Notes under the pieces: model-generated
Seen by the model: only the letters and a program-made list of their open reading frames with translations
Told to the model about the DNA's origin: nothing
The model's database searches: none
Assembly (NCBI GenBank): GCA_964444705.1
Contig: CAYUHX010000001.1
Location: 17,055-81,054, forward strand
DNA from: an uncultured Gammaproteobacteria bacterium
Lineage (GTDB): Bacteria; Patescibacteriota; Patescibacteriia; Magasanikbacterales; GWA2-37-8
DNA: 64,000 nt
Direction of reading: 5' to 3'
Translations under genes and position numbers: made by a program
Shown: positions 23,985 to 60,407 of the stretch, in pieces
Layout of the letters: each line of letters opens with the position of its first letter
Position numbering within the stretch: position 1 is the stretch's first letter

Positions 23985-24057
23985 GCGCCTGTAGCTCAGG
24001 GGTTAGAGCGCCACCCTTATAAGGTGGATGTCGATGGTTCAATTCCATCCAGGCGCA
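23985..24057 (+). tRNA. tRNA-Ile with anticodon UAU (TAT)
   Basis: Manual cloverleaf fold: 7-bp acceptor GCGCCTG/CAGGCGC, D-stem GCTC/GAGC, anticodon stem CCACC/GGTGG with loop CTTATAA (U33, anticodon TAT, A37), T-stem GATGG/CCATC with loop TTCAATT, discriminator A73. No CCA encoded. Candidate promoter TTGAAT-17-TAGACT about 60 nt upstream. Confidence 0.85.
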
Positions 24058-24083
24058 CATTTATTTTCTAATCACAGATTAAT

Positions 24084-31552: not shown

Positions 31553-34330
31553 CTATAAATACTTTGCGGTCCAACCTTTTTTGCGAGAGATAAGATCAGC
31601 CGGCGTACCAAAATCAACAATTTCACCACCACTCTCGCCTCCTTCAGGGCCAAGATCAATTACCCAATCACTGGAACGAATCATCTCCACATTATGCTCA
31701 ATCACAAGAACGCTATTACCTTTGTTCACCAAAGCATTAAGCACCTGGAGTAAGCGTTTAATATCTTCAAAGTGCAAACCTGTAGTAGGCTCATCCAGAA
31801 TATAAAGCGTTTTACCAGTAGAATGGCGCGCTAATTCTTGAGCAAGCTTGATACGCTGTGCCTCACCGCCTGAAAGGGTTGTAGCAGGTTGGCCAAGCTC
31901 AATATACCCCAAACCTACTTCACGGAGCACATTAAGCTTATCTGCAATCGCCGGAATATCACAAAAAAATTTAAACGCTTCTTCGACAGTCATCTTGAGC
32001 ACGTCGGCAATATGTTTGTTGTGATAATGCACTTCCAGAGCTTCTCGATTATACCGCCACCCACCACACTCATTACACTCCACATATACATCCGCCAAAA
32101 ATTGCATGGGAATACGAATATATCCATCACCACTACACGCTTCACATCGCCCACCACCCTTTACATTAAAACTAAATTTACCTGCATCATACGCACGCAT
32201 TCGTGCTTCTGGCAAAGACGCAAACAGATCTCGAATCAAATTAAAGATACCCGTATAAGTAGCCGGATTCGAACGTGGTGTGCGGCCAATCGGTGATTGA
32301 TCGATGGTAATCACCTTATCAATATGCGACAACCCCTGAATACTTTTGTGCGCCCCTGGCTCTTCTTTGGCGCGATAAAAATACTTAGCTAAGGCTTTAC
32401 TTAAAATATCGATAATTAATGTCGATTTACCCGATCCCGACACACCCGTAACACACACTAATCGACCAAGCGGAATATCGACATCAATATTTTTAAGGTT
32501 ATGAGCCGAAGCACCAGTAATCACAATTGACTTCCCCGTTCCTTTACGCACGACACGTTTTATAACCCCAATATTAGCTCGTCCAAAAAGATAGTCTGCC
32601 GTTAAAGAATCAGTTGATTTTTTAAACTCTTTAAGAGTGCCCTGTGCAATCACTTGTCCGCCATATACCCCGGCCCCTGGCCCCACATCAACCAAATAAT
32701 CGGCGGCGAGCATCATGGTGGCATCGTGCTCAACCACGATAACGGTATTACCCAAATCACGAAGATATTTAAGCGTTTCAATTAATTTTTGATTATCACG
32801 TGGGTGTAAACCAACCGATGGTTCGTCGAGCACATACACAATACCACTCAATCCCGAAGAGAGTTGCGTTGCCAAACGCACGCGAGTCACCTCACCGCCC
32901 GACAATGTATTCATGGCGCGATCAAGATTTAAATACCCTAAGCCTACACGCTCTAAATTTTCTAACCGCGGCACGATTTCACGAATAATCAAATCTGCCA
33001 CTTTTGAACTTTTTATTTCGCCTGTCAACACTCGTTTGACATCTTCCACATTCATCGCAGAAAAAGCCGAGATAGTATAATCTCCTAAACGTACGGCCAA
33101 CGACTCAGCCTTAAGACGTTTTCCTTGGCACACAGAACAAATTTTTTCTCGCATGTACTGCTCAATTTCTTTGCGCACATACTCAGAATTGGTTTCAAGG
33201 TGTTTGCTCATGAGATCGGGGATGACACCTACAAAACCAGTTTTCTTACCTTCAACGTCATACCATTCTTCGCCACTGCCATACAAAATGACATTCAAAA
33301 TTTTTGGTGATAAATCAACCACTGGAGTGTTGAGCGAAAAATTAAATCGATCGGCCACCGCTGCAAGAAGTTTGGTGTAAAAACTATGATTGCCGGTAAT
33401 ACGAGTCCAAGGCTGGATCGCACCTTCGGCTAAAGTAAGCCGTGCGTTTGGAATAACCAAACTCGCGTCAACCTCCATCGTCACCCCAAGACCAGTGCAA
33501 CGTGTGCACGCGCCATAGGGACTATTAAAACTAAAACTGCGCATATCAACCGGCGCCATGGTGCGACCACATTTTAAACAAATTCCCATGGTTGAACACA
33601 ATTTGTTTTTTTCTTCAGCCGAGAGCATCACCACCCCATTCGCAAGGTCAAGCGCACTTTCAATAAGCTTAGTAGGGTCTTGTTTTTTAATATCAGTAAT
33701 AGTGCCAATGAGTATCTCTACCGTGTAGAGGACATCTTTCTCAAACTGAAAATCAAGCAAATCGTTAATTTTAAAACGATTACCATTGAGACGCAACCAT
33801 TCAAACCCCGATTTTTCAATTCGCTCAAGTAATGATTTTTTTTCTATTTTTCCCTCGCGAATAAGAGGTGCATACACAGAAACTTCACCACTTTTACGGG
33901 CAAAACGACGTAATTCTTCCACAATTTCTCCACTCGTTTTCACCTCAACCGCCAAATGACATTCGGGGCAATACTGCTCACCCACGCGGGCAAAAAGCAA
34001 ACGCAAAAGATCATAAATCTCGGTTACGGTGCCCACGGTTGAACGTGGATTTTGCGTTGACATCTTTTGATCAATGGCGATAGTTGGCGATAAACCTTCA
34101 ATCGAATCGGCATCTGGTTTGTCTTGGGTTTCCATGAATTGTCGCGCATACGACGACATTGACTCCGCATAACGCCGCTGCCCTTCGGCATAAATAGTAT
34201 CAAACGCAAGACTCGATTTTCCTGATCCAGATAAACCAGTGATCACCACCAATTTATGCTTAGGAATTTCAATATCTACATTCTTTAAATTATGAACCCT
34301 GGCGCCACGAATTTTAATAGTGTCTGACAT
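31553..34330 (-). CDS. uvrA: excinuclease ABC subunit A (paralog 1, 925 aa)
   Basis: N-terminus [50 protein letters not shown]. Two ABC modules (second Walker [11 protein letters not shown]). Zn-finger cysteines. Confidence 0.92.
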   Translation of the reverse strand: MSDTIKIRGARVHNLKNVDIEIPKHKLVVITGLSGSGKSSLAFDTIYAEGQRRYAESMSSYARQFMETQDKPDADSIEGLSPTIAIDQKMSTQNPRSTVGTVTEIYDLLRLLFARVGEQYCPECHLAVEVKTSGEIVEELRRFARKSGEVSVYAPLIREGKIEKKSLLERIEKSGFEWLRLNGNRFKINDLLDFQFEKDVLYTVEILIGTITDIKKQDPTKLIESALDLANGVVMLSAEEKNKLCSTMGICLKCGRTMAPVDMRSFSFNSPYGACTRCTGLGVTMEVDASLVIPNARLTLAEGAIQPWTRITGNHSFYTKLLAAVADRFNFSLNTPVVDLSPKILNVILYGSGEEWYDVEGKKTGFVGVIPDLMSKHLETNSEYVRKEIEQYMREKICSVCQGKRLKAESLAVRLGDYTISAFSAMNVEDVKRVLTGEIKSSKVADLIIREIVPRLENLERVGLGYLNLDRAMNTLSGGEVTRVRLATQLSSGLSGIVYVLDEPSVGLHPRDNQKLIETLKYLRDLGNTVIVVEHDATMMLAADYLVDVGPGAGVYGGQVIAQGTLKEFKKSTDSLTADYLFGRANIGVIKRVVRKGTGKSIVITGASAHNLKNIDVDIPLGRLVCVTGVSGSGKSTLIIDILSKALAKYFYRAKEEPGAHKSIQGLSHIDKVITIDQSPIGRTPRSNPATYTGIFNLIRDLFASLPEARMRAYDAGKFSFNVKGGGRCEACSGDGYIRIPMQFLADVYVECNECGGWRYNREALEVHYHNKHIADVLKMTVEEAFKFFCDIPAIADKLNVLREVGLGYIELGQPATTLSGGEAQRIKLAQELARHSTGKTLYILDEPTTGLHFEDIKRLLQVLNALVNKGNSVLVIEHNVEMIRSSDWVIDLGPEGGESGGEIVDFGTPADLISRKKGWTAKYL

Positions 34331-42591: not shown

Positions 42592-43845
42592 CTAACGCTT
42601 TATTTTTCTCTTTGAACGATTAAAGGTAATTGCAAAACGATGTGCTTCATCACGCACACGAATGAGCGCCTCGCGATGGTGCGACACCCACGCCACGAGC
42701 GCCGGCTCCACACTCCCCAAAATAATATCGTTACGCTTTCGCTCTTTACCTTTAGCCAAACCTACTATGGGAATATCGACGTTTTTTGAACTAAGCACTT
42801 CTTTGGCACGATTCACCTGCGGTCGACCACCATCAATTAAAAAAAGAGTTGGCAACGGCCAATCAGCGTGTGCTAAACGACGATTCAACACCTCAGCTAA
42901 ACAATCTACATCACTCTGCCCCACTACTGTTTTAATGGTAAATTTTCGATAGGCTGCTTTAATTGGGCCATGCTCATCAGCAACCACCAAACTACCTACC
43001 TTGTCAGTGTCGCCCAAATTGGAAATATCATATCCTTCAATGCGATAATGATCTGCTTCATCGTTTGTCCCCGCGTGCTCTCTAAAAAATTCTTGATTTA
43101 AGAGAGCGACATCTTGAATACGATACAATGATTTTGATTGATCGCGCAGGCGCGCTGCTTCTTCAAAACGAAATTCTTTGGCTGCCAGCTTCATTTTATT
43201 TTCCCACTCTCGCACCAACTTCTTTTTTTCACCCTGTAAAAACAGCACCAGCGGCCGAATTACTTTTAACGCATAGTCGCGAGGACTAATTTCACCCGTA
43301 CAGACGCCCAGACACTCTTCCATCTGTCGATAGAGACAGGGCTTTAACGAAAGAGGTCGGCAACTCGAAAAACGAAATAATCGGCGAAGTAACTTCATGG
43401 TGGCCTTGGTATTGAGGCCAGGATACGGCCCGAACACATACTTGAAACCAGGCGGCACCTTTCCTTCTTCATGTGAAAGAAGACGCAGCTCGCGCTCACG
43501 AATAGTTTTCACCTGCGGATACAGCTCTTTCGTAATAATAATATAATTCCAACTTTTATCATCTTTACCAAGTACGTTGTATTTGGGTTGATTTTTTTTG
43601 ATGTACAACGCCTCTAAAATAATCGCCTCAAGCACTGATTCGGTTTCTTTCCACTCAATACGTGCCACCTCATGAATCATTTCTTCAATCGGCCGCGGCG
43701 TGCGTAGCCCACGAAAATAGCTTTGCACCCGGCTTTTAAGCGACGTTGCTTTACCCACATACACCAGCTCACCATCTTCAGAATAATACAAATAAATACC
43801 TGGGGCATCGGGTAATTTTTTAAAAACAGAATCAAATTTGTGCAT
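42592..43845 (-). CDS. uvrC: excinuclease ABC subunit C, compact form lacking the C-terminal (HhH)2 domain (417 aa)
   Basis: GIY-YIG N-terminus LPDAPGIYLYYSEDGELVYVGKATSLKSRVQSYF. UVR domain FRFEEAARLRDQ. RNase-H-like endonuclease domain RIEGYDISNLGDTDKVGSLVV...LIDGGRPQ. The frame ends before any helix-hairpin-helix pair. Confidence 0.85.
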   Translation of the reverse strand: MHKFDSVFKKLPDAPGIYLYYSEDGELVYVGKATSLKSRVQSYFRGLRTPRPIEEMIHEVARIEWKETESVLEAIILEALYIKKNQPKYNVLGKDDKSWNYIIITKELYPQVKTIRERELRLLSHEEGKVPPGFKYVFGPYPGLNTKATMKLLRRLFRFSSCRPLSLKPCLYRQMEECLGVCTGEISPRDYALKVIRPLVLFLQGEKKKLVREWENKMKLAAKEFRFEEAARLRDQSKSLYRIQDVALLNQEFFREHAGTNDEADHYRIEGYDISNLGDTDKVGSLVVADEHGPIKAAYRKFTIKTVVGQSDVDCLAEVLNRRLAHADWPLPTLFLIDGGRPQVNRAKEVLSSKNVDIPIVGLAKGKERKRNDIILGSVEPALVAWVSHHREALIRVRDEAHRFAITFNRSKRKIKR

Positions 43846-44082: not shown

Positions 44083-44211
44083 CTGATATCACCGTCGATA
44101 ATCAGAAATCAAAGAGACAAGAAACCGACATCCTGCTAGAATTTTCTACCTACTTACCTGTTTCGGATCTCTCCACACATGTTCATCGGGTTATCGACCG
44201 TGATATCAGAG
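44083..44211. repeat. 19-nt inverted repeat pair (CTGATATCACCGTCGATAA / TTATCGACCGTGATATCAG, 1 mismatch) bracketing about 90 nt of noncoding DNA
   Basis: Seen directly. A third half-site copy GATATCACC lies at about 43965. No ORF in the region. Confidence 0.4.
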
Positions 44212-44270: not shown

Positions 44271-44375
44271 CCCGACGATGGTAATCTGCGCTTGAATTTG
44301 AAAGGAACAAGGATCAAGGAACAAAGAGCAATTTGTCCTTTTTCCTTCACTCGAACTCACATTACCATCGTCGGG
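44271..44375 (+). promoter_or_regulatory. 15-bp perfect inverted repeat (CCCGACGATGGTAAT ... ATTACCATCGTCGGG) enclosing a 75-nt purine-rich spacer, at the low-GC/high-GC junction just upstream of the high-GC lipoprotein gene
   Basis: Seen directly. The right arm ends 40 nt before the ATG, and a strong SD GAGGAGG follows. Confidence 0.4.
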
Positions 44376-44415
44376 CACTTGCGCCCGTCGATCCCTACGT
44401 CCTGAGGAGGACCGC

Positions 44416-45105
44416 ATGAACCGCATCCGTCGCAACTCGTTCCTGTCCCGCTACCTGCTGGCCGCCAGCCTGGCCGCCAGCCCGCTGACCACCGGCTGCG
44501 GCACGCCCGAGCCCACCACCCCGGTGGCACCGCAGCCCAGCACCCTGGCCAAGGTGAGCCGGAAGATCCCCGCCGACGGGGAGACCACGGGCCGGAGCCC
44601 GCTGGTGGGGGCGCTGCTCGACCGGCAGGTCACCGTCGGCGTCGCCAGCTTCACCATCACCCCCCACGCCGACGGCACGGCCAACGCCGAGGCCGGCGCC
44701 GTCTTCTGGAAGCCCAATGCGGAGCTGAAGGCCGGCCAGCGGTACGAGTGGACCATGGTCTTCAACGACCGCGGCTACGAGACGACCCTGAAGGGCAACT
44801 TCACCGTGGCCAAGGACCCCCCGCCCGCGCCGATGGGCCCCCTGTGGGGGCTCTCTGAGGGCACCCTGGGTGGGGCCACCAAGCAGTTCACCTGCAGCGG
44901 TACCCACGCCGGCCAGTACTACCTGACGGTCACCAAGGCCGGTGACGGCGCGCTGATCTGGGGCCAGAAGGTGGGCGGCTTCGGGCAGGAGTTCTACTAC
45001 ATCAACTCCCAGGACCTGGCGGCCACGTACCTCCAGACGGGCATCGTCTCGGGGATCACCTTCAGCGCCGAGGGCCTGCAGGAGGGTACCACCACCTGCA
45101 AGTAG
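44416..45105 (+). CDS. lipoprotein of unknown function encoded in a high-GC (about 70%) island
   Basis: SD GAGGAGG 6 nt upstream of the ATG. Signal peptide plus lipobox LAASLAASPLTTGC. GC3-rich codon usage unlike neighbouring genes. Downstream hairpin terminator at 45276-45312. Confidence 0.7.
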   Translation: MNRIRRNSFLSRYLLAASLAASPLTTGCGTPEPTTPVAPQPSTLAKVSRKIPADGETTGRSPLVGALLDRQVTVGVASFTITPHADGTANAEAGAVFWKPNAELKAGQRYEWTMVFNDRGYETTLKGNFTVAKDPPPAPMGPLWGLSEGTLGGATKQFTCSGTHAGQYYLTVTKAGDGALIWGQKVGGFGQEFYYINSQDLAATYLQTGIVSGITFSAEGLQEGTTTCK

Positions 45106-45275
45106 CGGCGCTGCCGCCCGACCCGCGGCGGCGCACACCGGCCATCAAATCGCTTGATCCACCGCTCCGTTCCGCAGCCCCCGCTCGCCTAAACCTGCTC
45201 GCCCACTTCGGTGCGAACAGCGGTGCGAGGGGGGCCTGCATCTGTTGAATAAAAGAACTGTCTTTTGTTCATAGA

Positions 45276-50910: not shown

Positions 50911-51022
50911 ATAGGCACCTTGCAATGGAAGATATGTATTTTTCTGAGGGCGGTTGGAGTTTTGAATAAACCCCAACCGCCACGATGAATGGCATGCCGA
51001 CCCTCCGAAGAGAAGCCGGCGC

Positions 51023-51406
51023 TCACGAGGCGGCCTCCATGCTGCTGGTGGTAACGACCGGCGGCGCGGCCTCGTGGCGAACAGGCAGATGAGCGATGGC
51101 CGGCGGCGCGGCGGCGCGCCGCTTAGCCTCGTCGCGAAGGAAGTTGTCGGCCTGCACCCAGAGCGGTACGCCGATCATAAGGCCAACCCAGAGGCCGAGA
51201 CCACACCAGAACGCCCCAGTCATGGTGGCGTCGATGCCTAGCCCCAACTCGGGAACAATTTCGTTGTCGAGCTGGGTAGCTCGAATGAGATAGGCAAGCG
51301 CCCAGAGGACAAGTACCCACCCGATGACGGTAATGAACTGACCGATCGTCCTTTGGATCTTGGCCCGCGAACCGTTCTCGATCCGGATCATGTCTTTGAT
51401 CTTCAT
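51023..51406 (-). CDS. small two-TM membrane protein encoded in a high-GC (about 60%) island
   Basis: Hydrophobic helices VIGWVLVLWALAYLI and GAFWCGLGLWVGLMIGVPLW. Ala/Pro-rich tail. Composition differs sharply from its flanks. Confidence 0.5.
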   Translation of the reverse strand: MKIKDMIRIENGSRAKIQRTIGQFITVIGWVLVLWALAYLIRATQLDNEIVPELGLGIDATMTGAFWCGLGLWVGLMIGVPLWVQADNFLRDEAKRRAAAPPAIAHLPVRHEAAPPVVTTSSMEAAS

Positions 51407-51536
51407 CTCAAACTCCTTTCTAAGTTCTGCGAAGAGCGTCTCCTCGCCACCACGCTGGTGACGAACGCTCTACTCTTCACGAACTATTGTCAAAGAACAA
51501 AAAAGGATACTACAAAATTGAGTGACATTATACTTT

Positions 51537-53303
51537 TTATGCGCCAAAGAAATTACTCAATCGTTTCAATATTGTAGGCTTAGTTCGATTAAGATATTCT
51601 TGATCCTTGGCATGCTGATATAACTTAGCCGTTAAAAGAGAAAAAAATTGCGGCACATCCACTGTTTTATCTTTTTTATTGATAATTGGAAGATTACTCC
51701 AGTCGGCATCATATAACCCTAATTTCTTTCCAAGTTTCTCGGCTTTCACACCACCCGCTGCCAACACCTTAAGATTTTCCACAATGTTGTGTGAATAAAT
51801 GCTCGCTTCTGGCACCACCTTAACTACCGCGTCGGTAAGGACATGTTCGAGGTGACGACCGTTTCCCCAACGATATATCACCGAAGTATTTTTCTCTGTT
51901 GGTGCGACCGCCGTCTTTTTTGTCATCTCAGATGTTGAAGGTTGTGAATCGACTTGATCTCTGTTGCTTTGTAGCAACTCTTTTGCTCTCTTAACCTCTT
52001 GCGCAATATCGTTATCGCCTTTAAAAAGACCAGAATTTTTAAGAATGGCTTTAAACGAATCTGGGGCGTCTTCCTGTGGTGCCAAGGCTTTTTTTATTCC
52101 TTTCACAGCGTGTACCACGGCTGGATTTTCGGTTACTTGGCCTCGATGCTCATACGCAAATACGCCCGCAAATAAACCGGCAACCAGGCCAGCAGTTTGT
52201 TGCAGTCGTTTAAACACACCCTGCTTCTTTCGTGCGCGTTCTCGTTGTTGATAAACCGAAATGGCCGCTCGCTGAATCTGCGCAATATTTTCTTCATTAT
52301 CAAGCAATATCGCGTCTGGAACAGGCGCAGTAACATTCTCTTCTTTGACAACACTTACTTCTTGTTCTTTAGTCGGTTCTTCGAAAGGAGCCTCAATAAC
52401 AATATTTTCTACCTCAAGCGCAGCGAGCTCTTTAACGTCTTGGTTCGCAATTTCTGTCGCTGCCGGTGGCAACTGATCATTATCTACCAACCCAACCGAA
52501 GCGTGCTGTTCGTCTAAGAAAGACACTGCTGGCTCCCTTGCCAAAATGTTGGCTTCTTTTTCGGCAAAATTCTTAAGAGTTCCCTCAGCCTGGCTCATTT
52601 CTTCTTCAGCGGCAACCTGTTGAATTGTTTCATAGGCAATGTGTACTAGCCGACGCTGAACAGCCTGCACCAGCTCAGCAAATTTAGTTGGGTGCATAGT
52701 TCTTGCCAAGGCTCGCTGAACACCATCGGCTTCAGTATAAAGTCGACTAACAACTGCCGAAGCTGAACCGGTCTTTACCGACACTTGTTGAAAAAGATCA
52801 ATGAATTGGCGCACGATATCAAGGTGATGGCCAAGCTCAGTAGTGATATCAGTTCGCAATCGTGCATCAACTGCACTCAAGGCTTTAGAAAGTTTCATTT
52901 TGTCTGTGCCGCTTTGGTTATGTTTCTTTTTAAGAAGTGTTATTTCTGCTGCATAGGCACTCACCAATTCACTCACACCCTGCACTAGTTCCGCTGCATA
53001 ACGCAATTGAGTGGCATCAACAACTTTGTCTTGTTGCAATGCTTTTATCAATCGTTCTGGGCCTGAGAACAGTGCCGCAAAATATTCTTGATGTGCTCGT
53101 GGCGCATCAAGATATTCTTCTTGCAACTGCGGACCCTTAATCGGACGGGCAATTAAAACAATTTCTTTACGCACCTGGGCCAAGCTTTCTGCAATGGCTT
53201 TTAATGTATAGTTTTTTTCTTCTCTTTTTAAATCAACTACCTCACCAAGAAACCTGTTACGGGATTCAGAAATAGGCATATACATTGAATATGTTTTACA
53301 CAA
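51537..53303 (-). CDS. hypothetical alpha-helical protein (588 aa; alternative start at 53279)
   Basis: Long open frame with one hydrophobic segment (TAGLVAGLFAGVFAY). No recognizable domain. Confidence 0.5.
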   Translation of the reverse strand: MCKTYSMYMPISESRNRFLGEVVDLKREEKNYTLKAIAESLAQVRKEIVLIARPIKGPQLQEEYLDAPRAHQEYFAALFSGPERLIKALQQDKVVDATQLRYAAELVQGVSELVSAYAAEITLLKKKHNQSGTDKMKLSKALSAVDARLRTDITTELGHHLDIVRQFIDLFQQVSVKTGSASAVVSRLYTEADGVQRALARTMHPTKFAELVQAVQRRLVHIAYETIQQVAAEEEMSQAEGTLKNFAEKEANILAREPAVSFLDEQHASVGLVDNDQLPPAATEIANQDVKELAALEVENIVIEAPFEEPTKEQEVSVVKEENVTAPVPDAILLDNEENIAQIQRAAISVYQQRERARKKQGVFKRLQQTAGLVAGLFAGVFAYEHRGQVTENPAVVHAVKGIKKALAPQEDAPDSFKAILKNSGLFKGDNDIAQEVKRAKELLQSNRDQVDSQPSTSEMTKKTAVAPTEKNTSVIYRWGNGRHLEHVLTDAVVKVVPEASIYSHNIVENLKVLAAGGVKAEKLGKKLGLYDADWSNLPIINKKDKTVDVPQFFSLLTAKLYQHAKDQEYLNRTKPTILKRLSNFFGA

Positions 53304-53308
53304 ATTTT

Positions 53309-54073
53309 TTAACTACGCGCAATCGTCTGATCTTCATAAGCTCCAAGATCATCGGATGCATACATATCACGCAGCATAGTATACGGCGCTGCAACAAGCT
53401 CGTCGATCGACATCGCATCAATCTGACGTTTTATTTTTTCTTTTTGCAAAGCTTCAATCAATGTTATGTAGTGCAATCGCCACTCACGAATCACATCAGG
53501 AAACGAAAATAAATCATTTTTTTTACCAAAATCTTCAGGCGAATAACTACTAATATCCTTTTGGAGCGCATTCGCATGACGCATCATTTTTTGCCACGCC
53601 CCGTGAGATAAAGATTTCAGACTGCTCTCTGAAACAGTTTGAAGTAACGCTTTGGTATAACGAACGGCGTTATCAAGCACGTGTTTTCGAAACAACAATC
53701 GCCGCGTATGGATCTCATGCTCTTTTTGAGTAACCACTTTTTCATTTTCCGTTTTGAGAGCAGATTGTCTTGCTGCAAAAAGCGTTTCAAGCTCGCGTAA
53801 CTGGTTGGCAACTACGCGGTGGGTGCCTTTGATATGCTGCAGAAGTTCTCTTGTTTGGTGAGGGGTAATTCCTTCTTTAGCGAACACATGCCTGCTCACC
53901 ATGTCTTCAAGCGGCCAAATAACGACGATACAGTCATCTTTATCTTCTTGTGACACTCTGGCAGTTTGAATTATTCTTTTTAAATCGCCTAATTTTTCTG
54001 CTAACGAAACATTTTTTTCAGCTGCGGCAATTGGTTCTGAATGTTCTCTTGTTTGAGCGTGAACATTGCGCAT
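53309..54073 (-). CDS. hypothetical alpha-helical protein (254 aa)
   Basis: Open frame tightly spaced with the upstream gene on the same strand. Confidence 0.5.
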   Translation of the reverse strand: MRNVHAQTREHSEPIAAAEKNVSLAEKLGDLKRIIQTARVSQEDKDDCIVVIWPLEDMVSRHVFAKEGITPHQTRELLQHIKGTHRVVANQLRELETLFAARQSALKTENEKVVTQKEHEIHTRRLLFRKHVLDNAVRYTKALLQTVSESSLKSLSHGAWQKMMRHANALQKDISSYSPEDFGKKNDLFSFPDVIREWRLHYITLIEALQKEKIKRQIDAMSIDELVAAPYTMLRDMYASDDLGAYEDQTIARS

Positions 54074-54491
54074 GTCACACTGATTATTATTCTATGTACA
54101 AAAAGTATAGCACAAAAAACCCAATCAAACACGGCCCGAGCGATATCCCAACTTCTCCATCTCTCTTTTTAAAAAGAGAGGTAGAAAAGCTGACCGACGG
54201 CACCCGAAACCAACTGCTGTTGGTGGGTGCCGTCGCTGTGTGTACTCCTAACAAACAAAAACGAAATGGATCAGACCACTGTAGCCTGCTCCGCGATCAG
54301 GGCGCGGAGTTCTGCGGCGTCTTTGGCCGCGGCGCGGATCTGGAGCTCCTCGAGCCGCTGGTGCCGCCGCCGCGTCGACCGTCGCACGAAGTTCTCCCAA
54401 TATCGCGGAAGCCGCTCGGGCGGCTTGGGCGCCGCTGGCGCCGCCGCTTTCGGCAACACCCGGTTGAGCCAACGGAGGTTGACCCAAAGGA

Positions 54492-56240
54492 TCACTGCCG
54501 ACACCAGGCACAACCCCACCAGGAGGAGGAAGAACCAGTGGTGGGGCCAGGGCTTCCAGAACCTCCCGAGCGCGGCGCGAGCTTGCTGACCAGCGCCAGC
54601 CCCATGGGGGACAGGCACAGCTCAGCCAGGGTGACGACGAAGTAGCTGCTGATGAGCCAGAGCGGGCTCACTCGGCCAGAGTTGCCACCGGCGAGCGAAC
54701 CCACCACCATGATCAGGTACGAGATGGCCGTAAGCACCATCCCAATGCCGATCTTGGCTGCGGTGGACGGCTGACGGCCGCGCTTCTCGAGGAAGACTCC
54801 GAAGAACCAGTTGAGAACTGGCGTCAGAGTCACGACGAAAAACGGGTTGACGCTATTGTAAACAATAGCGCCGGGCTTCCAGCCGAGGATGCTCTCGCGG
54901 GTGTGGTCGTCGGCCCAGAAGACCAAAACGCTGCCGTTCTGGTGAAACGCCGCCCAGAAAAAAATGACAATCACACAAATAACACTGATCGCGAGGATCC
55001 GTAGACCCTCGACGAGCGGCGGCTCGCGCGCGTCTTCGTATTCCTTGGGCAAGGGGACCCCAAGGACGGCCGCGACACTCGATCTCTGATCCGCCAGCTT
55101 GAACCAGCGGTAGCACGCGGCGGCGATGACGAAGCCGACCATCATGCCGACACCGGCCGCCGAGAATGCCGCCGCCCACCCGTAGTGCGCCACCATGTAG
55201 TCGGCAACAAAGGGGCTAAAAAATGCCCCAATGTTGACGCCCATGTAGAAGACGCTGAAGGCAGCGTCCCGCCGCGAATCGCCGGCGGGATACATGTTCC
55301 CCAGCATCGTCCCGATGCTGGGCTTGAACATGCCGTTCCCCAAGACGATGAGAATGATCGCCGTCCAGAGAAACTTGGGAGGAGCGCCGAGCGCGAAGTA
55401 GCCCACGGCCATGAGGGCCGCGCCGAAGAGCACCGCCTTCCGATAGCCCAGCCACCGGTCGGCGATGATGCCCCCGAAGAACGGGGCGAAATAGGTCAAC
55501 GCGATGAAGCTCCCATACGTACTCGAGGCTTCGGCCGCCGAGTACCCCAAGTGCTTCTTGAGGTACAAGGTGAAAATGGCCAGCATCAGGTAGTAGCCGA
55601 AGCGCTCCCACATCTCGACCATAAAAAACGCGTAGAGCTGACGCGGGTGCCGGGGACCAGAGGAGCGGCGGGTCGCGAGCTTGCTGAGGAGGCGAGCGAT
55701 CGGACGGAATGGCCAGTTCCGCCTGGTCACGGCCCAGTCATCGGCTAAGAGCCAACTCCAATACCGGAGCTCCGCCATGAGCTCGCCGATCCAGGGGTGC
55801 GCCTTGAGGAAGCGCGCCCGGCGGTAAGCCGCGATGCGAGCCTGCTGCGCCCTCCTCTCGGCGCGCTCCGCCTGCCGAATGGCGTTGATGCGGGCCGCGC
55901 CATCACGGCGGATCTGCTGGGCACGCTCGAACGCAGCGAAACGCGCGAGAAGCCGCTGCCACGGGGGCGACACGCCCGAGTGGACCAGCGCGTACGCCGC
56001 CCGCCCGGCGGTGAAAAACCAGAAGATGGCGGGCGCGACGAAGTTGAAAAACTCACGGGCCGGCGGGGCAAGCCGCTGCCGAACGGCGTCCACGGTCGCG
56101 AGCACGCGCCGTTTGACGCTGGCGAACGTCGCGGCCACCACGGTGAAAAATGCGATGATCTTGAGCACCACCCGCTCCTCGATGAGAAGCTGCGGAGCCG
56201 TCATAGTTGCCTTGGCCTGGATCGGACGCTTTCTCTTCAT
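54492..56240 (-). CDS. POT/PTR2-family proton-dependent oligopeptide transporter in a high-GC (about 65%) island, with an about 190-aa N-terminal extension and a probable 3' frameshift (continuation likely in frame 54271-54618)
   Basis: PTR2 signature FFMVEMWERFGYYLMLAIFTLYL, GGIIADRWLGYRKAVLFGAALMAVGYFALG and LAELCLSPMGLALVSKLAP. After KLAP the frame degenerates (SGGSGSPGPTTGSSSSWW) while the overlapping -frame reads a plausible TM (HHWFFLLLVGLCLVSAVILW). Confidence 0.7.
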   Translation of the reverse strand: MKRKRPIQAKATMTAPQLLIEERVVLKIIAFFTVVAATFASVKRRVLATVDAVRQRLAPPAREFFNFVAPAIFWFFTAGRAAYALVHSGVSPPWQRLLARFAAFERAQQIRRDGAARINAIRQAERAERRAQQARIAAYRRARFLKAHPWIGELMAELRYWSWLLADDWAVTRRNWPFRPIARLLSKLATRRSSGPRHPRQLYAFFMVEMWERFGYYLMLAIFTLYLKKHLGYSAAEASSTYGSFIALTYFAPFFGGIIADRWLGYRKAVLFGAALMAVGYFALGAPPKFLWTAIILIVLGNGMFKPSIGTMLGNMYPAGDSRRDAAFSVFYMGVNIGAFFSPFVADYMVAHYGWAAAFSAAGVGMMVGFVIAAACYRWFKLADQRSSVAAVLGVPLPKEYEDAREPPLVEGLRILAISVICVIVIFFWAAFHQNGSVLVFWADDHTRESILGWKPGAIVYNSVNPFFVVTLTPVLNWFFGVFLEKRGRQPSTAAKIGIGMVLTAISYLIMVVGSLAGGNSGRVSPLWLISSYFVVTLAELCLSPMGLALVSKLAPRSGGSGSPGPTTGSSSSWWGCAWCRQ

Positions 56241-56540
56241 GAGCGACCTCGCATGATTATTTATTTCCGTTGTTCAAAGAGGGTTAACTCATCTGCCACA
56301 CCGGCAGCTGAGCCCTCTCCTCTTTGCCAACACTTTTTGACCCACCCAAGGCGGACGAGAGTTAATTCTCCGTAGCTTTTTGTTACGAGACTTCCAATCA
56401 ACACCTCGTCAGTTCTACTGCGAGGTACTTCATTTGTAAAGAACAGATACAAAATAAGCGCACCGATGTTTTCCGTACGCCTTATCTATACTGAACGTAG
56501 CACAAAAACGACCAAAAGTCAATGGTCTTAAGGTACAAAA

Positions 56541-56575
56541 AAAGCCCACTTTTTAAGCAAAAAATGGGCCCAGAC
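56541..56575 (-). terminator. rho-independent terminator downstream of the 324-aa hypothetical gene
   Basis: Minus-strand reading GGGCCCATTTTTTGCTTAAAAAGTGGGCTTTTTTTG. Confidence 0.5.
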
Positions 56576-56587
56576 GTTTATGTTGCC

Positions 56588-57562
56588 CTACTCATCACGC
56601 AGCACTTTCCTCAGTCGATCTGCTTCGTCCTCATTCGCTTGAGTTGTTTCTAAAAGATCGAGATATTCTTTCCACACGGTGGCTCGCTCTTTATTTACCC
56701 TATTGCGTAATCGATTCCCAAAAGAAATAAATGCCGATGGTTCGTTCAACTCTTTTGCAGCAACACCCAAGCGAAGCAGCAACTGGTCTTTTAAAAAACC
56801 TAATTGTGAATTATTTTGTGCAATAACCTCCTCAAGCTGGCTAATTTGTGACTCTACAACATCACGAGGGGTTGACCTGCCCTCAACCTTTAAATCATGA
56901 TTTTTCGAAAGCGGTTCATCCCAGGCTGATCGGGTCGCACTTACGTGCGATGCTTTGACTAACGATTGACGCTCAAGCGCAGCATTTTCTCGCTGCAAAC
57001 GCTGCATATTCGCCTCTTCTTTTTCTGCGTTGCGCTTAATTTCCGCTTCCAATTCTGCGCGCTGCCGTTTTTCAATCACTTCATTTCTTCTTTTTTCCAT
57101 TAACTCATCCATTGCCACCGCATTTTGTTTTCTATACGCCCGCCTCTCTTCTTCTGTTAAATTCGGTGGAAAATCAATGCCATCAACTGGCTCCGTCAGT
57201 TGCGTTGCTTCATTCGTTAAATCTGGCACACCATCACTACTTTCATCAACTGGCGACACCAATTTCGTCTCAGCACCCAAAACAACTTCCGGAGAAAACA
57301 TATCTGTAATCCGAACTGGGGAAACGCCACTTGGAAACGAGGGATCTAATCTAGCGCGACCCTCGACATCACGCGATTTTTGTACCCTCGTCCGCAACTC
57401 TTCTAAACGAATCAGATCTTCTGGCTTCAAATTACTTTGCGCAAATGAAAGTGGTATATCTAGCCACTCTACCAGATTTGCATCTGTTAACCTTCCATTT
57501 TCTTCAAAATGATTAACTAATTTTTCTGGCACATGCCCCCCTGATGAAACATTTTCTCCCAT
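56588..57562 (-). CDS. hypothetical coiled-coil protein (324 aa)
   Basis: Glu/Arg-rich heptad-like stretch (EERRAYRKQNAVAMDELMEKRRNEVIEKRQRAELEAEIKRNAEKEEANMQRLQRENAALERQ). Confidence 0.5.
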   Translation of the reverse strand: MGENVSSGGHVPEKLVNHFEENGRLTDANLVEWLDIPLSFAQSNLKPEDLIRLEELRTRVQKSRDVEGRARLDPSFPSGVSPVRITDMFSPEVVLGAETKLVSPVDESSDGVPDLTNEATQLTEPVDGIDFPPNLTEEERRAYRKQNAVAMDELMEKRRNEVIEKRQRAELEAEIKRNAEKEEANMQRLQRENAALERQSLVKASHVSATRSAWDEPLSKNHDLKVEGRSTPRDVVESQISQLEEVIAQNNSQLGFLKDQLLLRLGVAAKELNEPSAFISFGNRLRNRVNKERATVWKEYLDLLETTQANEDEADRLRKVLRDE

Positions 57563-57731
57563 ATAACTATGTAAGAAATAAAAACATGTTTATGCTAACA
57601 TAAATAAACGCAAAGTCAATTAAGGTTTGACAAAAAAAATACACCGAGTTAAGCTAATTTTACTTCTTCTCTACGAAAGATGAGGCCCCGCCGTGGGCTT
57701 TTTTAGATTCGTACGACCTACTTATATTTTT

Positions 57732-60407
57732 ATGGATAAAATTACCATTAAAGGCGCCCGAGAACATAACCTAAAAAACATTTCTCTTGAGCTGCCACGC
57801 AACAAAATGATTGTGTTTACGGGTTTGTCTGGTTCGGGAAAATCAAGCCTCGCGTTTGATACTATCTTTGCCGAAGGTCAGCGTCGCTATATTGAAAGTT
57901 TGTCCGCCTATGCGCGGCAATTTTTGGGTGGTATGCAAAAACCTGATGTGGATGAAATCGAAGGCTTGTCCCCCGCTATTTCTATTGACCAAAAAGCGCA
58001 TAGTGCAAACCCGCGTTCTACGGTGGCCACCATCACCGAAATCTACGATTACCTGCGCGTGTTGTTTGCTCGCGTCGGCGCACCACATTGCCCCATCTGT
58101 GGCACCAAAATAGAAAAAATGACTATCGATCAAATGATTGAACGAATAGTGAAAGGAATAAAAAATAAAGACAAAGAAAAAAATGTATTAACCATTCTTT
58201 CTCCCATAGTCCGCGGACGCAAAGGTGAATATTACCAATTACTCTATGACACCTATAACTCTGGCTACCTTGAGGTGCGCGTTGATGGCAAAATAAAAAG
58301 TCTGCGAGAAAGAATTGTCTTATCAAAAAACAATGCGCACACCATTGAAGTTATTGTCGATAAAATTCCATTAAAATTTGACGAAAAAAATCTAAAATCA
58401 AAAACTACTACACCGCTATCAGAAGATGATTCCCAACGCCTCACCGAAGCAGTACGTTCGGCCACCGATCTTTCAAACGGCCTTTGTACAGTCATTTACC
58501 CCAGCGGTGAGGAGCAGGTATACAGCACCGAATATTCCTGCCCCAACGATGGGTTTAGCTTCCCAGAAATTGAGCCGCGCTTGTTTAGTTTCAACAGCCC
58601 CTATGGCTACTGCGAAGCCTGCACCGGCCTTGGTACCAAAGAACTTTTCAGCACCGAAATATGCACCGTCTGCCAAGGTAAACGTCTCAACAAAAATGCA
58701 CTTAGTGTAAAAGTGGGTACCAAAAACATTTGGGAAATCACCACGCTCACCATTAGTGATGCGCGCGAATTTTTTGCCGCAGTCGACATGGAGCTGAGCG
58801 ACACTGAGCGAGAAATTTCTGGTGCAGTGCTTAAAGAAATCGGCAATCGTTTACAATTCATGTTTAATGTAGGTTTGCATTATTTGAGTCTCAACCGCAA
58901 AGCCGGCACTCTCTCGGGTGGCGAGGCGCAACGCATTCGCCTCGCGTCGCAAGTGGGCACCAAACTCGTCGGTGCGCTTTATGTGCTCGACGAGCCCACC
59001 ATTGGACTCCACCAAAAAGACAATGACCAGTTGGTGAAAACGCTTCGCAATCTCTGCGATGTGGGCAACACCATCATCGTGGTGGAGCACGACGAAGACA
59101 CCATTCTTGCGAGTGATTGGCTCGTTGATTTTGGCCCGGGCGCCGGAAAGCATGGTGGCGAAGTGGTGTATTCTGGTCCACTCACCACACTGCTCGAAAC
59201 ACGCAACGACACGAATGTAAAAAAATCTACTGCCCGCGCGCTTGGTGCGACTGTGGCTATCCCAAAGAAAAAAAATTCTGAAGACCTGGTTGGTCAAACC
59301 GCCTTTCACTGCGCTCTTCAAGGCAGTGCCCTCCAGTCGCTCACTGGGCAGTATTTGCGCGGTGAAAAAACCATCGCTATTCCAGAAACACGGCGCAAAG
59401 TTGATTCCGCGACACCAAAAATAAAAATCAAAGGCGCCAAAGAACACAACCTTAAAAACATCACCGTTGAAATTCCACTCCGACGTTTGGTGTGTCTTAC
59501 CGGCGTCTCGGGATCGGGCAAGTCAACCCTCATGCATGATATTTTGCATGAAGCGGTAACGAATAAATTTTTCCGCACGAGCCGAGTCGTCGGCGCGCAC
59601 CAAGAAATTACCGGCCTTGAATATATTGATCGCATGATTACCATTGATCAATCGCCGATCGGCCGTACCCCCCGCTCTAACCCCGCAACATATACCAAAG
59701 CTTTTGATATCATTCGCGACTTATTTTCTTCCACCGCCGAAGCCAAAATCCGCGGCTTTAAAAACGGAATGTTTAGCTTCAATGTCCCCGGTGGACGCTG
59801 CGAGCACTGCGAAGGACGTGGCACACTCGAAATTGAAATGCACTTCTTGCCAAGTGTAGAAATTGTCTGTGATGTGTGCCGAGGAAAACGTTTTACTCAA
59901 GATGTGCTTCAAATTCATTACAAAGAAAAAAATATTTCTGAAGTTTTGAGCATGACCGTCGAAGAAGCGGAAGAATTTTTTCGCGACGTTCCTCTCATTC
60001 ATGATAAATTAAAAATGCTGAAAGAAGTGGGTCTTGATTATCTCACGCTTGGGCAATCAGCCACGACGCTTTCAGGCGGTGAAGCACAACGCATCAAGCT
60101 CTCGAAAGAACTTTCTAAATACGGCACGAGCAAAACACTCTACCTCTTGGACGAACCCACCACCGGTCTCCACTACGAAGATGTACGCAAATTAGTGGAT
60201 GTACTCCAACGCCTGGTTTCGCAAGGCAACACGGTGATGGTGATTGAACACAATCTTGATGTGATCAAATCTGCCGACTGGATTATTGATCTTGGCCCAG
60301 AAGGTGGTGACAAAGGGGGTCAATTAGTTGCCACTGGCACGCCCGAAGAAGTAGCTAAAAAAAGTGGCAGCGCCACTGGGCATTATTTAAAAAGACTTCT
60401 GAAATAA
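57732..60407 (+). CDS. uvrA: excinuclease ABC subunit A paralog 2 (UvrA-like, about 892 aa)
   Basis: N-terminus [65 protein letters not shown]. Second ABC module [18 protein letters not shown] signature LSGGEAQRI twice. Cys clusters. Confidence 0.88.

Follow-up and report, generated by a model that had tools for sequence, protein, structure and literature searches.

How did a gene of about 60% GC (guanine plus cytosine) come to lie in a low-GC chromosome, and what travelled with it? This question is raised by a short interval of a 64,000-nucleotide stretch of contig CAYUHX010000001.1 (assembly GCA_964444705.1; the whole stretch is hereafter the window), in which a small minus-strand gene for a protein with two transmembrane (TM) helices is surrounded by genes of a quite different composition. 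Here, we refer to this interval as island 2, and to two further GC-rich segments of the window as islands 1 and 3 (coordinates of all features are shown in Table 1). We consider, with a probability of roughly two-thirds, that island 2 is a horizontally acquired single-gene unit that is composed of a structured 54-nt leader (R1), a Shine-Dalgarno (SD) sequence, a 127-aa open reading frame (ORF) and a 3' hairpin, and that is located in a hypervariable block.

A GC-rich island and its gene

The initial annotation had described an island of ∼480 bp and ∼60% GC between low-GC genes for a DUF218 protein and a 588-aa protein, and measurement gave the same picture: the GC content of the interval 50930-51420 was 59.7%, that of the DUF218 gene on its left 44.7% and that of the 588-aa gene on its right 43.4%. 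The island was also an outlier in quantitative terms. Host windows of 491 bp contained 43.7 ± 3.6% GC with a maximum of 54.6%, which places the interval at a z of 4.5. Maximal-segment analysis delimited a core of 416 bp (50971-51386; 64.2% GC) with a score of 46.5, whereas the best native host segment scored 17.9 and the best of 100 shuffles 18.0. Its trinucleotide Kullback-Leibler (KL) divergence to the host was 0.205, beyond the range of host chunks of the same size (0.041 ± 0.017, maximum 0.108), and its divergence to a Myxococcota pool was 0.080. Only two segments of the window had higher scores, 44369-45239 (70.6% GC) and 54284-56229 (64.6% GC), in agreement with the similar islands that had been claimed at 44.4 and 54.2 kb.

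The gene had been predicted as a minus-strand ORF for a two-helix protein of 127 aa with an Ala/Pro-rich tail, on which ORF analysis, hydropathy and homologues agree. The GC content at the first, second and third codon positions (GC1, GC2 and GC3) was 0.625, 0.469 and 0.766, respectively, which is consistent with the minus-strand frame. It should be noted that long ORFs in several frames are common in GC-rich DNA (island 1 contains ORFs of 229 and 247 aa on opposite strands), and the 127-aa ORF might accordingly be a chance ORF or an antisense by-product of a gene on the plus strand. However, competing plus-strand ORFs across island 2 do not exceed 65 aa, the strong SD is correctly spaced, the codon-position GC fits the frame, and the protein has homologues with conserved motifs of which it keeps every invariant residue. 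An antisense artefact, which the initial annotation had named as a concern, can thus be excluded, and the probability that the ORF is spurious in any way is practically negligible.

Including the 5' element and the 3' hairpin, the unit occupies ∼50949-51480 on the minus strand (∼530 bp). The 3' hairpin is not followed by a T-run and is therefore not a canonical terminator; neither a canonical sigma-70 promoter nor an intrinsic terminator was found at island 2. Upstream of the ATG, an in-frame stop is present and no remnant of the N-terminal domain of other family members (see below) could be detected. The SD core was found within 20 nt upstream of the start codon in only 5 of 43 host genes, whereas islands 1 and 2 have a strong SD (island 3 has GAGG); because of this difference, the translation-initiation signals of the islands look imported, as far as sequence can tell.

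A rare family of small membrane proteins

A word-index search of the 127-aa protein against 5.8 billion proteins returned only the protein itself, and a contig look-up of its exact sequence gave no record. Exhaustive phmmer comparison revealed 15 homologues (E-values from 2e-8 to 4e-4; 36–46% identity in the core), and a profile search started from this set extended them to 39 members, all annotated as 'hypothetical' and none with a Pfam domain. The homology search that the initial annotation had proposed thus yielded ∼40 homologues, and those in named genomes were all of Myxococcota type. The family is rare (∼40 of 5.8 billion clustered proteins). We define it here from these homologue searches as the ELGLG-loop family; it is without a Pfam entry, no match for the 127-aa protein was found in Pfam, NCBIfam or PHROGs, and by these sequence comparisons the two-TM family is new to the three curated libraries. 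Matches of family members to DUF1218, DUF6458, SepZ and holin-X were rejected as sub-threshold and due to the resemblance of hydrophobic helices only. A sequence profile search of the PDB and a Foldseek search with the AlphaFold model found no more than generic helical hairpins (E > 1 throughout).

The family core consists of TM1, the loop motif HN-x-x-G-ELGLG-x-D-[AS]-T, TM2 with a conserved Cys, the motif G-x-P-x-W and a basic stretch. All eight invariant and all nine near-invariant positions are retained in the window protein. Its loop fits the pattern N-x(4-6)-E-L-G-x-G-x-[DGS]-[AS]-T (N47, E53-L54-G55-L-G57-I-D-A-T61), in which E53, L54 and G55 are invariant across 30 family sequences, and its second helix carries C68, G79, P81 and W83, followed by RDEAKRR. 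Most members are of a long form, with an N-terminal extension of 50–120 aa that contains an FA-x-R-x-x-LRT motif. The extension is lacking in a short form, to which the window protein (only 22 residues ahead of TM1) and the homologues P0004, P0010 and P0013 belong.

Hydropathy analysis places the TM segments of the window protein at approximately residues 23–43 and 64–85. The N-terminus is basic, the loop with ELGLGIDAT acidic, the region after TM2 basic again and the C-terminal tail rich in Ala and Pro; this charge distribution, together with the two hydropathy segments, indicates a predicted N-in/C-in topology. An AlphaFold model based on 30 homologues showed a helical hairpin (H4-50/H57-99) with a mean pLDDT (predicted local distance difference test) of 75.5. 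On the basis of this model, the protein is probably a small inner-membrane hairpin with an external acidic loop that forms an oligomer. It resembles class II holins and MscL-type hairpins in its size, its pair of TM helices, its charged C-terminus and the predicted N-in/C-in topology. However, Phage_holin_3_6 matched only 3 of 30 members, below threshold, no PHROG matched more than 1 of the 30, no MscL match was obtained, and the neighbours are chromosomal housekeeping genes, with no phage or lysis genes near any locus. In addition, no family member was found in viral contigs (IMG/VR). A phage holin or prophage remnant, with neither a family match, nor a lysis or prophage context, nor viral loci, was rejected. 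The genes next to family members vary between loci (an upstream gene of 207/215 aa is common only to two closely syntenic contigs), and therefore no operon partner or function can be deduced for the family.

Probable foreign origin of island 2

Island 2 is compositionally foreign to the window, and the family members that carry an organism label are all found in high-GC genomes of Myxococcota type. A scan of 185,579 species (one genome each) with the family alignment revealed at least four confirmed family loci, a lower bound since a single degenerate peptide pattern was used, and all four were in metagenome-assembled genomes (MAGs) labelled Myxococcota, Myxococcales or 'Deltaproteobacteria'. 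Contigs that contain long-form homologues have 59–72% GC. Codon usage was compared by the likelihood ratio of synonymous codons between a Myxococcota pool and a host pool (LLR). Host genes had values of -0.75 ± 0.15 (maximum -0.46) and Myxococcota genes +0.55 ± 0.19, and the values were +0.22, +0.38 and +0.84 for islands 2, 3 and 1, respectively. The family's own Myxococcota genes ranged from +0.03 to +0.43; island 2 lies inside this range, and therefore no amelioration is needed to account for its resemblance to them.

Among the islands, 2 and 3 were most alike in trinucleotide profile (r 0.90). Given this similarity, the Myxococcota-type relatives of both and the GC and GC3 values of island 3, the two islands plausibly came from the same kind of donor. 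The initial annotation had asked whether its three islands share a donor, and for these two the idea was borne out, the more so as both carry the same 54-nt 5' element.

The chromosomal site is informative as well. In a relative represented by contig L011, whose UvrB is 60% identical and which is thus a distant one, the overlap of uvrB with the DUF218 gene is identical to that in the window, but only 48 nt, with no GC island, separate the DUF218 gene from uvrA; uvrB and uvrA are also adjacent in two further contigs (L013 and L019). A foreign origin of island 2 is therefore suggested by three lines of evidence: its composition and codon usage, the Myxococcota affinity of its protein, and the contiguous uvrB-DUF218-uvrA arrangement in a relative. 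These correspond to features by which genomic islands are recognized, namely deviant composition and codons, cargo with relatives in a distant lineage and absence at the syntenic site.

A structured element at the 5' edge

The closest homologue of the window protein, P0004, is encoded on L093, a 5.7-kb contig with 47.7% GC and genes for RNase Y-like protein, HU, endonuclease III, SecG and SBP_bac_5. The P0004 gene is itself a GC island there (60% GC, GC3 0.74). P0010 follows ftsH on contig L097, and its gene is more GC-rich than its flanks. When the regions upstream of the window gene and of these two homologues were aligned, a 54-nt block, R1, was found that is better conserved among the three than the coding sequence. 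It folds into a 9-bp outer stem (with an AAGAG/CUCUU core), an internal loop and a 10-bp inner hairpin. For the three sequences, RNAalifold predicted 19 pairs, five of them with compensatory changes, and 96.5% of cells could pair, compared with 39–54% in slid controls. A covariance model of these three, searched over 1.2 Mb, identified a fourth and divergent copy that it did not contain (28.4 bits, E 7.7e-4); this copy borders island 3 on the 5' side. With all four sequences, in an alignment fitted to the covariance model, 96% of cells could pair (slid controls 40–47%) and 8 of the 19 pairs were compensatory.

The cmsearch score of copy 1 was 70.3 bits, and the rebuilt model scored copy 2 at 61.8 bits. 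An unfiltered search of the window detected exactly these two copies, with the opposite strand at 8–11.4 bits; the R1 structure is strand-specific and rich in G-U pairs. The single-sequence fold of copy 1 had an energy of -30.6 kcal/mol. Relative to shuffled sequences, the fold z was -3.7 for copy 1, -3.7 for copy 2, -5.1 for a further copy and only -1.1 for that of L093. All four copies are located at the point where GC content rises, 20–31 nt upstream of a start codon, and a GC-rich hairpin is found after each R1-linked ORF, followed by CTCAG in island 2 and L093 and by TCAG in island 3. No Rfam 15 family overlapped R1 at E ≤ 10 (window copies and L093), and R1 appears from this search to be new relative to Rfam. 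R1 was absent at island 1, at the first GC island of L093, at the gene of P0013 (contig L096) and at 97 other loci. In viral contigs, two loose scans for the R1 pattern returned chance matches only, and the covariance model gave at most 22 bits on the pre-selected loci.

What R1 does can be approached from its position. Its distance of 20–31 nt to the start codon, its SD-complementary CUCUU and the purine decoy AAGAG resemble 5' untranslated-region regulators that sequester the SD. In contrast with riboswitches and RNA thermometers, R1 has no Rfam match and no recognizable ligand-binding architecture.

On the other hand, the R1-headed units might be mobile gene cassettes in which R1, possibly together with the 3' hairpin, is the recombination or end-recognition site of an unlinked recombinase or transposase that transfers single GC-rich genes to intergenic positions in genomes of the Candidate Phyla Radiation (CPR). 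In four of four cases, GC-rich DNA begins within a few nt of the 5' end of R1 and ends at the GC-rich hairpin, and donor-type promoter DNA is not present upstream of R1. Such edges without a donor promoter are the pattern expected of a cassette with defined ends. The same element is found in one genome on two different genes (for the two-TM protein and the POT transporter), the CTCAG or TCAG after the 3' hairpins recurs, and the layout of stem, internal loop and stem resembles folded single-strand recombination sites. However, the 64 kb contain no integrase, transposase or reverse transcriptase; neither attC core sites (both strands) nor target-site duplications were found in or around the islands; only four distinct copies of R1 are known, with none in the 97 other loci or the pattern-matched viral contigs; and R1 is always on the sense strand, G-U-rich and strand-specific at its short distance from the start, as is typical of an mRNA leader. 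We therefore regard it as unlikely that the R1/hairpin units are an unrecognized portable cassette that carries membrane-protein genes from Myxococcota-like hosts into or among ultra-small CPR bacteria, with R1 as an end or recognition site or a portable expression signal.

As in integron cassettes, the units are single-gene, apparently promoterless, bounded by a folded imperfect palindrome and present several times in one region. Unlike attC, which lies 3' of the ORF, R1 lies 5' of it; RYYYAAC/GTTRRRY cores are absent here, as are an integrase, an array and attI, and the units are separated by host-type genes. An integron gene cassette was rejected: there is no attC core pair, no IntI or other recombinase in the 64 kb, and no array.

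Some additional observations were made on the contigs of the homologues. A second single-gene GC island is present on L093 (1231-1800), with ∼59% GC against a background of ∼45%, and encodes a 189-aa hypothetical protein. R1 is absent from this gene, which is preceded by a canonical promoter (TTGACA-16-TATGAT); past its stop codon, a GC-rich hairpin is followed by CTGAAC. A 35-nt AT-rich, promoter-like block (CCCTTGATTTTTTTA..GTTTT.GTGTATACAAAA) is near-identical at L093 2771-2805 and L096 119-153 and is absent from the window; the family genes below it encode proteins that are only ∼45% identical. Just upstream of this block, positions 1-110 of L096 form a short palindromic element similar to miniature inverted-repeat transposable elements, with inverted ends TTGTCATCCTGA and TCAGAATGACAA.

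Weighing acquisition against residence and artefact

Several points weigh against horizontal acquisition from a Myxococcota-like donor. The window protein, P0004 and P0010, all R1-linked and all encoded in low-GC contigs, group together on long branches in a neighbour-joining tree at ∼42% identity, a clustering also consistent with long-standing residence in low-GC genomes. R1 was absent upstream of every Myxococcota homologue examined, and therefore its derivation from Myxococcota lacks support. The nearest homologues of the protein are only 35–46% identical, which means that no actual donor has been sampled, and the attribution to Myxococcota is based on four MAGs and one degenerate search pattern. 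None of the signs of mobility that often mark genomic islands was found at island 2 (integrase or transposase, direct repeats, target duplications, adjacent tRNA). The CPR lineage of the host, as well as the lineage of L093 and L097, rests on inference, and the sequestration of the SD by R1 that is proposed below is purely inferred.

The grouping of the R1-linked proteins would be accommodated if the gene family were old and native in low-GC bacteria and the Myxococcota copies were the transferred ones, with the gene kept GC-rich by, for example, amino-acid composition, RNA structure or biased repair. It would imply a long divergence during which GC3 was held at ∼0.74–0.77 (P0004 and window genes). 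However, protein sequence does not constrain GC3, and an old residence would leave its retention at such a high level unexplained. Moreover, the POT gene of neighbouring island 3 has the same GC and GC3 as its Myxococcota homologue, approximately 35 of the 39 family members (including the long N-terminal forms) are found in contigs with 59–72% GC, the gene is missing from the site in L011, and the long branches of the clade may reflect long-branch attraction. A native origin appears quite improbable on balance.

That the window comes from a metagenome-assembled contig of 139 kb also raises the possibility of an assembly chimera or contamination, in which high-GC reads were stitched into a CPR contig. 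Against this, the window contains three separate inserts, each of them a complete gene in a precisely intergenic position; host sequence flanks every insert on either side, and none of them interrupts a host gene. The arrangement around the P0004 island of L093 was assembled identically from three different, independent sequencing runs, and islands of different assemblies are linked by a common R1. An artefact of this kind is thus very hard to maintain.

A possible route and its implications

If island 2 was acquired horizontally, its DNA would come from an unsampled, Myxococcota-like lineage with high GC content, and the most plausible way of uptake would be natural transformation; the uptake of donor DNA would in turn imply that the bacterium lives in close physical association with its donor. 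Across CPR the com machinery is conserved, natural competence has been demonstrated in Saccharibacteria (PMC10633639), and islands derived from horizontal gene transfer (HGT) are common in groundwater Patescibacteria (PMC12455944). The encoded protein would enter the membrane as a helical hairpin whose N- and C-termini remain cytoplasmic and whose acidic ELGLGxDAT loop is exposed outside, and it would probably work as an oligomer. R1 may act in the mRNA as a cis-regulatory leader, a role suggested by its fixed sense orientation and fixed distance to the start codon. Its 3' strand CUCUU would be an anti-SD-like sequence that is held by the decoy AAGAG. Upon opening of the outer stem, CUCUU could pair with AAGGAG, the ribosome-binding site that lies 9 nt downstream of R1, and translation would be reduced.

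The HGT islands of the groundwater study (PMC12455944) provide the closest comparison. They also consist of foreign genes in streamlined CPR genomes, recognized by composition and phylogenetic affinity, and single-gene transfers from unrelated phyla are documented among them. In contrast, Myxococcota is not among the donor phyla tabulated there and does not occur in the text (0 occurrences), the units described here are very small single genes (0.5–2 kb), and a conserved structured 5' element common to two units was not encountered in that paper. HGT into CPR is already known, and a single-gene island recognized by its composition thus falls within a known kind; the novelty lies in the protein family, the apparent Myxococcota-type source and the R1 element.

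Two of these objects, a rare family of small membrane proteins and the 54-nt R1, are outside Pfam, NCBIfam, PHROGs and Rfam. The covariation of R1 is unusually clean for so few copies; within one genome, the element connects foreign genes that are unrelated, and between genomes it connects homologous ones. As a regulator, R1 would represent a new class of leader; as a marker of unit ends, it would represent a new type of cassette. To our knowledge, the hosts of almost all environmental CPR/Patescibacteria have not been identified, and we know of no reported CPR host from Myxococcota. A repeated gain of compositionally fresh genes from one donor phylum would point to the organism with which the bacterium is physically associated, in this case a Myxococcota-like one, and if the units should be portable cassettes after all, they would reveal an otherwise unknown host of this CPR lineage.

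Table 1. Positions of the GC-rich islands, R1 copies and associated features in the window
Feature	Position	Strand	Evidence or content
127-aa ORF, two TM helices	51023..51406	-	ORF listing, GC3 0.766, homologues, hydropathy/charge, AlphaFold
SD AAGGAG, 6 nt before ATG	51413..51418	-	Sequence reading
R1 copy 1, 54-nt two-stem structure, 5' edge of island 2	51427..51480	-	L093/L097 conservation, RNAalifold, cmsearch
GC-rich 3' hairpin, ∼40 nt past stop, then CTCAG; 3' edge of island 2	50949..50983	-	Sequence, fold
Variable block (6.8 kb), DUF218 to uvrA	50911..57692	-	Island 2, ORFans of 588 and 254 aa, island 3, ORFan of 324 aa
Island 3, POT/PTR2 transporter gene, Myxococcota type	54271..56240	-	Pfam PTR2, homologues, alternate-frame tail
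R1 copy 2, 5' edge of island 3, 31 nt before POT ATG	56272..56327	-	cmsearch
Island 1, 70.6% GC, 229-aa predicted lipoprotein (44416-45105, lipobox LTTGC)	44369..45239	+	No R1

Host background and neighbouring features

The window encodes AsnRS/AspRS, GAPDH, GyrB, QueA, EF-Ts, S2, NusG, RF1, RodA, UvrA (two copies), UvrB and UvrC, as well as a 2,278-aa surface protein, a DUF3048 protein and a protein with a weak T4SS_pilin match. Among the nearest relatives of its UvrB, none more than 69% identical, are groundwater contigs from 0.1-µm filter fractions. From this housekeeping set, the T4SS_pilin match, DUF3048, the giant surface protein and the origin of the UvrB relatives, the host appears to be a low-GC, CPR/Patescibacteria-like and probably ultra-small bacterium.

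Gene content suggests that the block between the DUF218 gene and uvrA is a hypervariable region of gene gain. Islands 2 and 3 are interleaved in it with three minus-strand ORFans, 51537-53303 (588 aa), 53309-54073 (254 aa) and 56588-57562 (324 aa), which have host-type codon usage (LLR from -0.82 to -0.88). No homologues of the three were found in any library or locus examined, and a contig scan with the 588-aa ORFan found no relatives. By eye, all three proteins are charged and helical-looking.

In island 3, the main ORF (54492-56240) encodes a protein that matches PF00854 with 163.8 bits (cut-off 27) and TIGR00924 with 241 bits (cut-off 130). Its best named relatives (53–57% identity) are from Myxococcales, Myxococcota and Polyangia MAGs and, in a few cases, from MAGs labelled 'Pseudomonadota'; in GC and GC3 (0.619 and 0.814), the gene equals its homologue in a Myxococcales MAG (L090). 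The POT reading frame is not intact: a frameshift is present near the 3' end, and the final TM helix is encoded in another frame (54271-54618), whose product matches the C-terminus of a Myxococcota POT protein (E 6e-8). Either a pseudogene or an assembly indel may account for this frameshift. The ORF also has a 190-aa N-terminal extension that is found in no homologue (homologues span 62% of the query), in which two hydrophobic helices can be seen by eye.

Island 1 is more extreme in composition than islands 2 and 3 (GC3 0.965), and its ribosome-binding site is GAGGAGG. For its protein, no match was found in Pfam, NCBIfam, PHROGs or the PDB, and the exact sequence is absent from the protein collection. 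The 570-bp spacer between uvrC and island 1 contains two long imperfect inverted repeats (44083-44209 and 44271-44375, plus strand). The second of them is a 105-nt hairpin (-51.7 kcal/mol, z -4.2) that ends 40 nt before the start codon of island 1; its sequence is unrelated to R1, and it has no match among Rfam families.

Finally, some features of the wider window may be mentioned. The two UvrA paralogues are encoded within 64 kb, at 31553-34330 on the minus strand and 57693-60407 on the plus strand, and uvrC (42592-43845) is short (417 aa). The gene order differs from that of L011, where uvrB, DUF218, uvrA, x and uvrC follow one another on one strand. In addition, a tRNA-Ile with the anticodon TAT, an uncommon bacterial route for reading AUA, is located at 23985-24058 on the plus strand.

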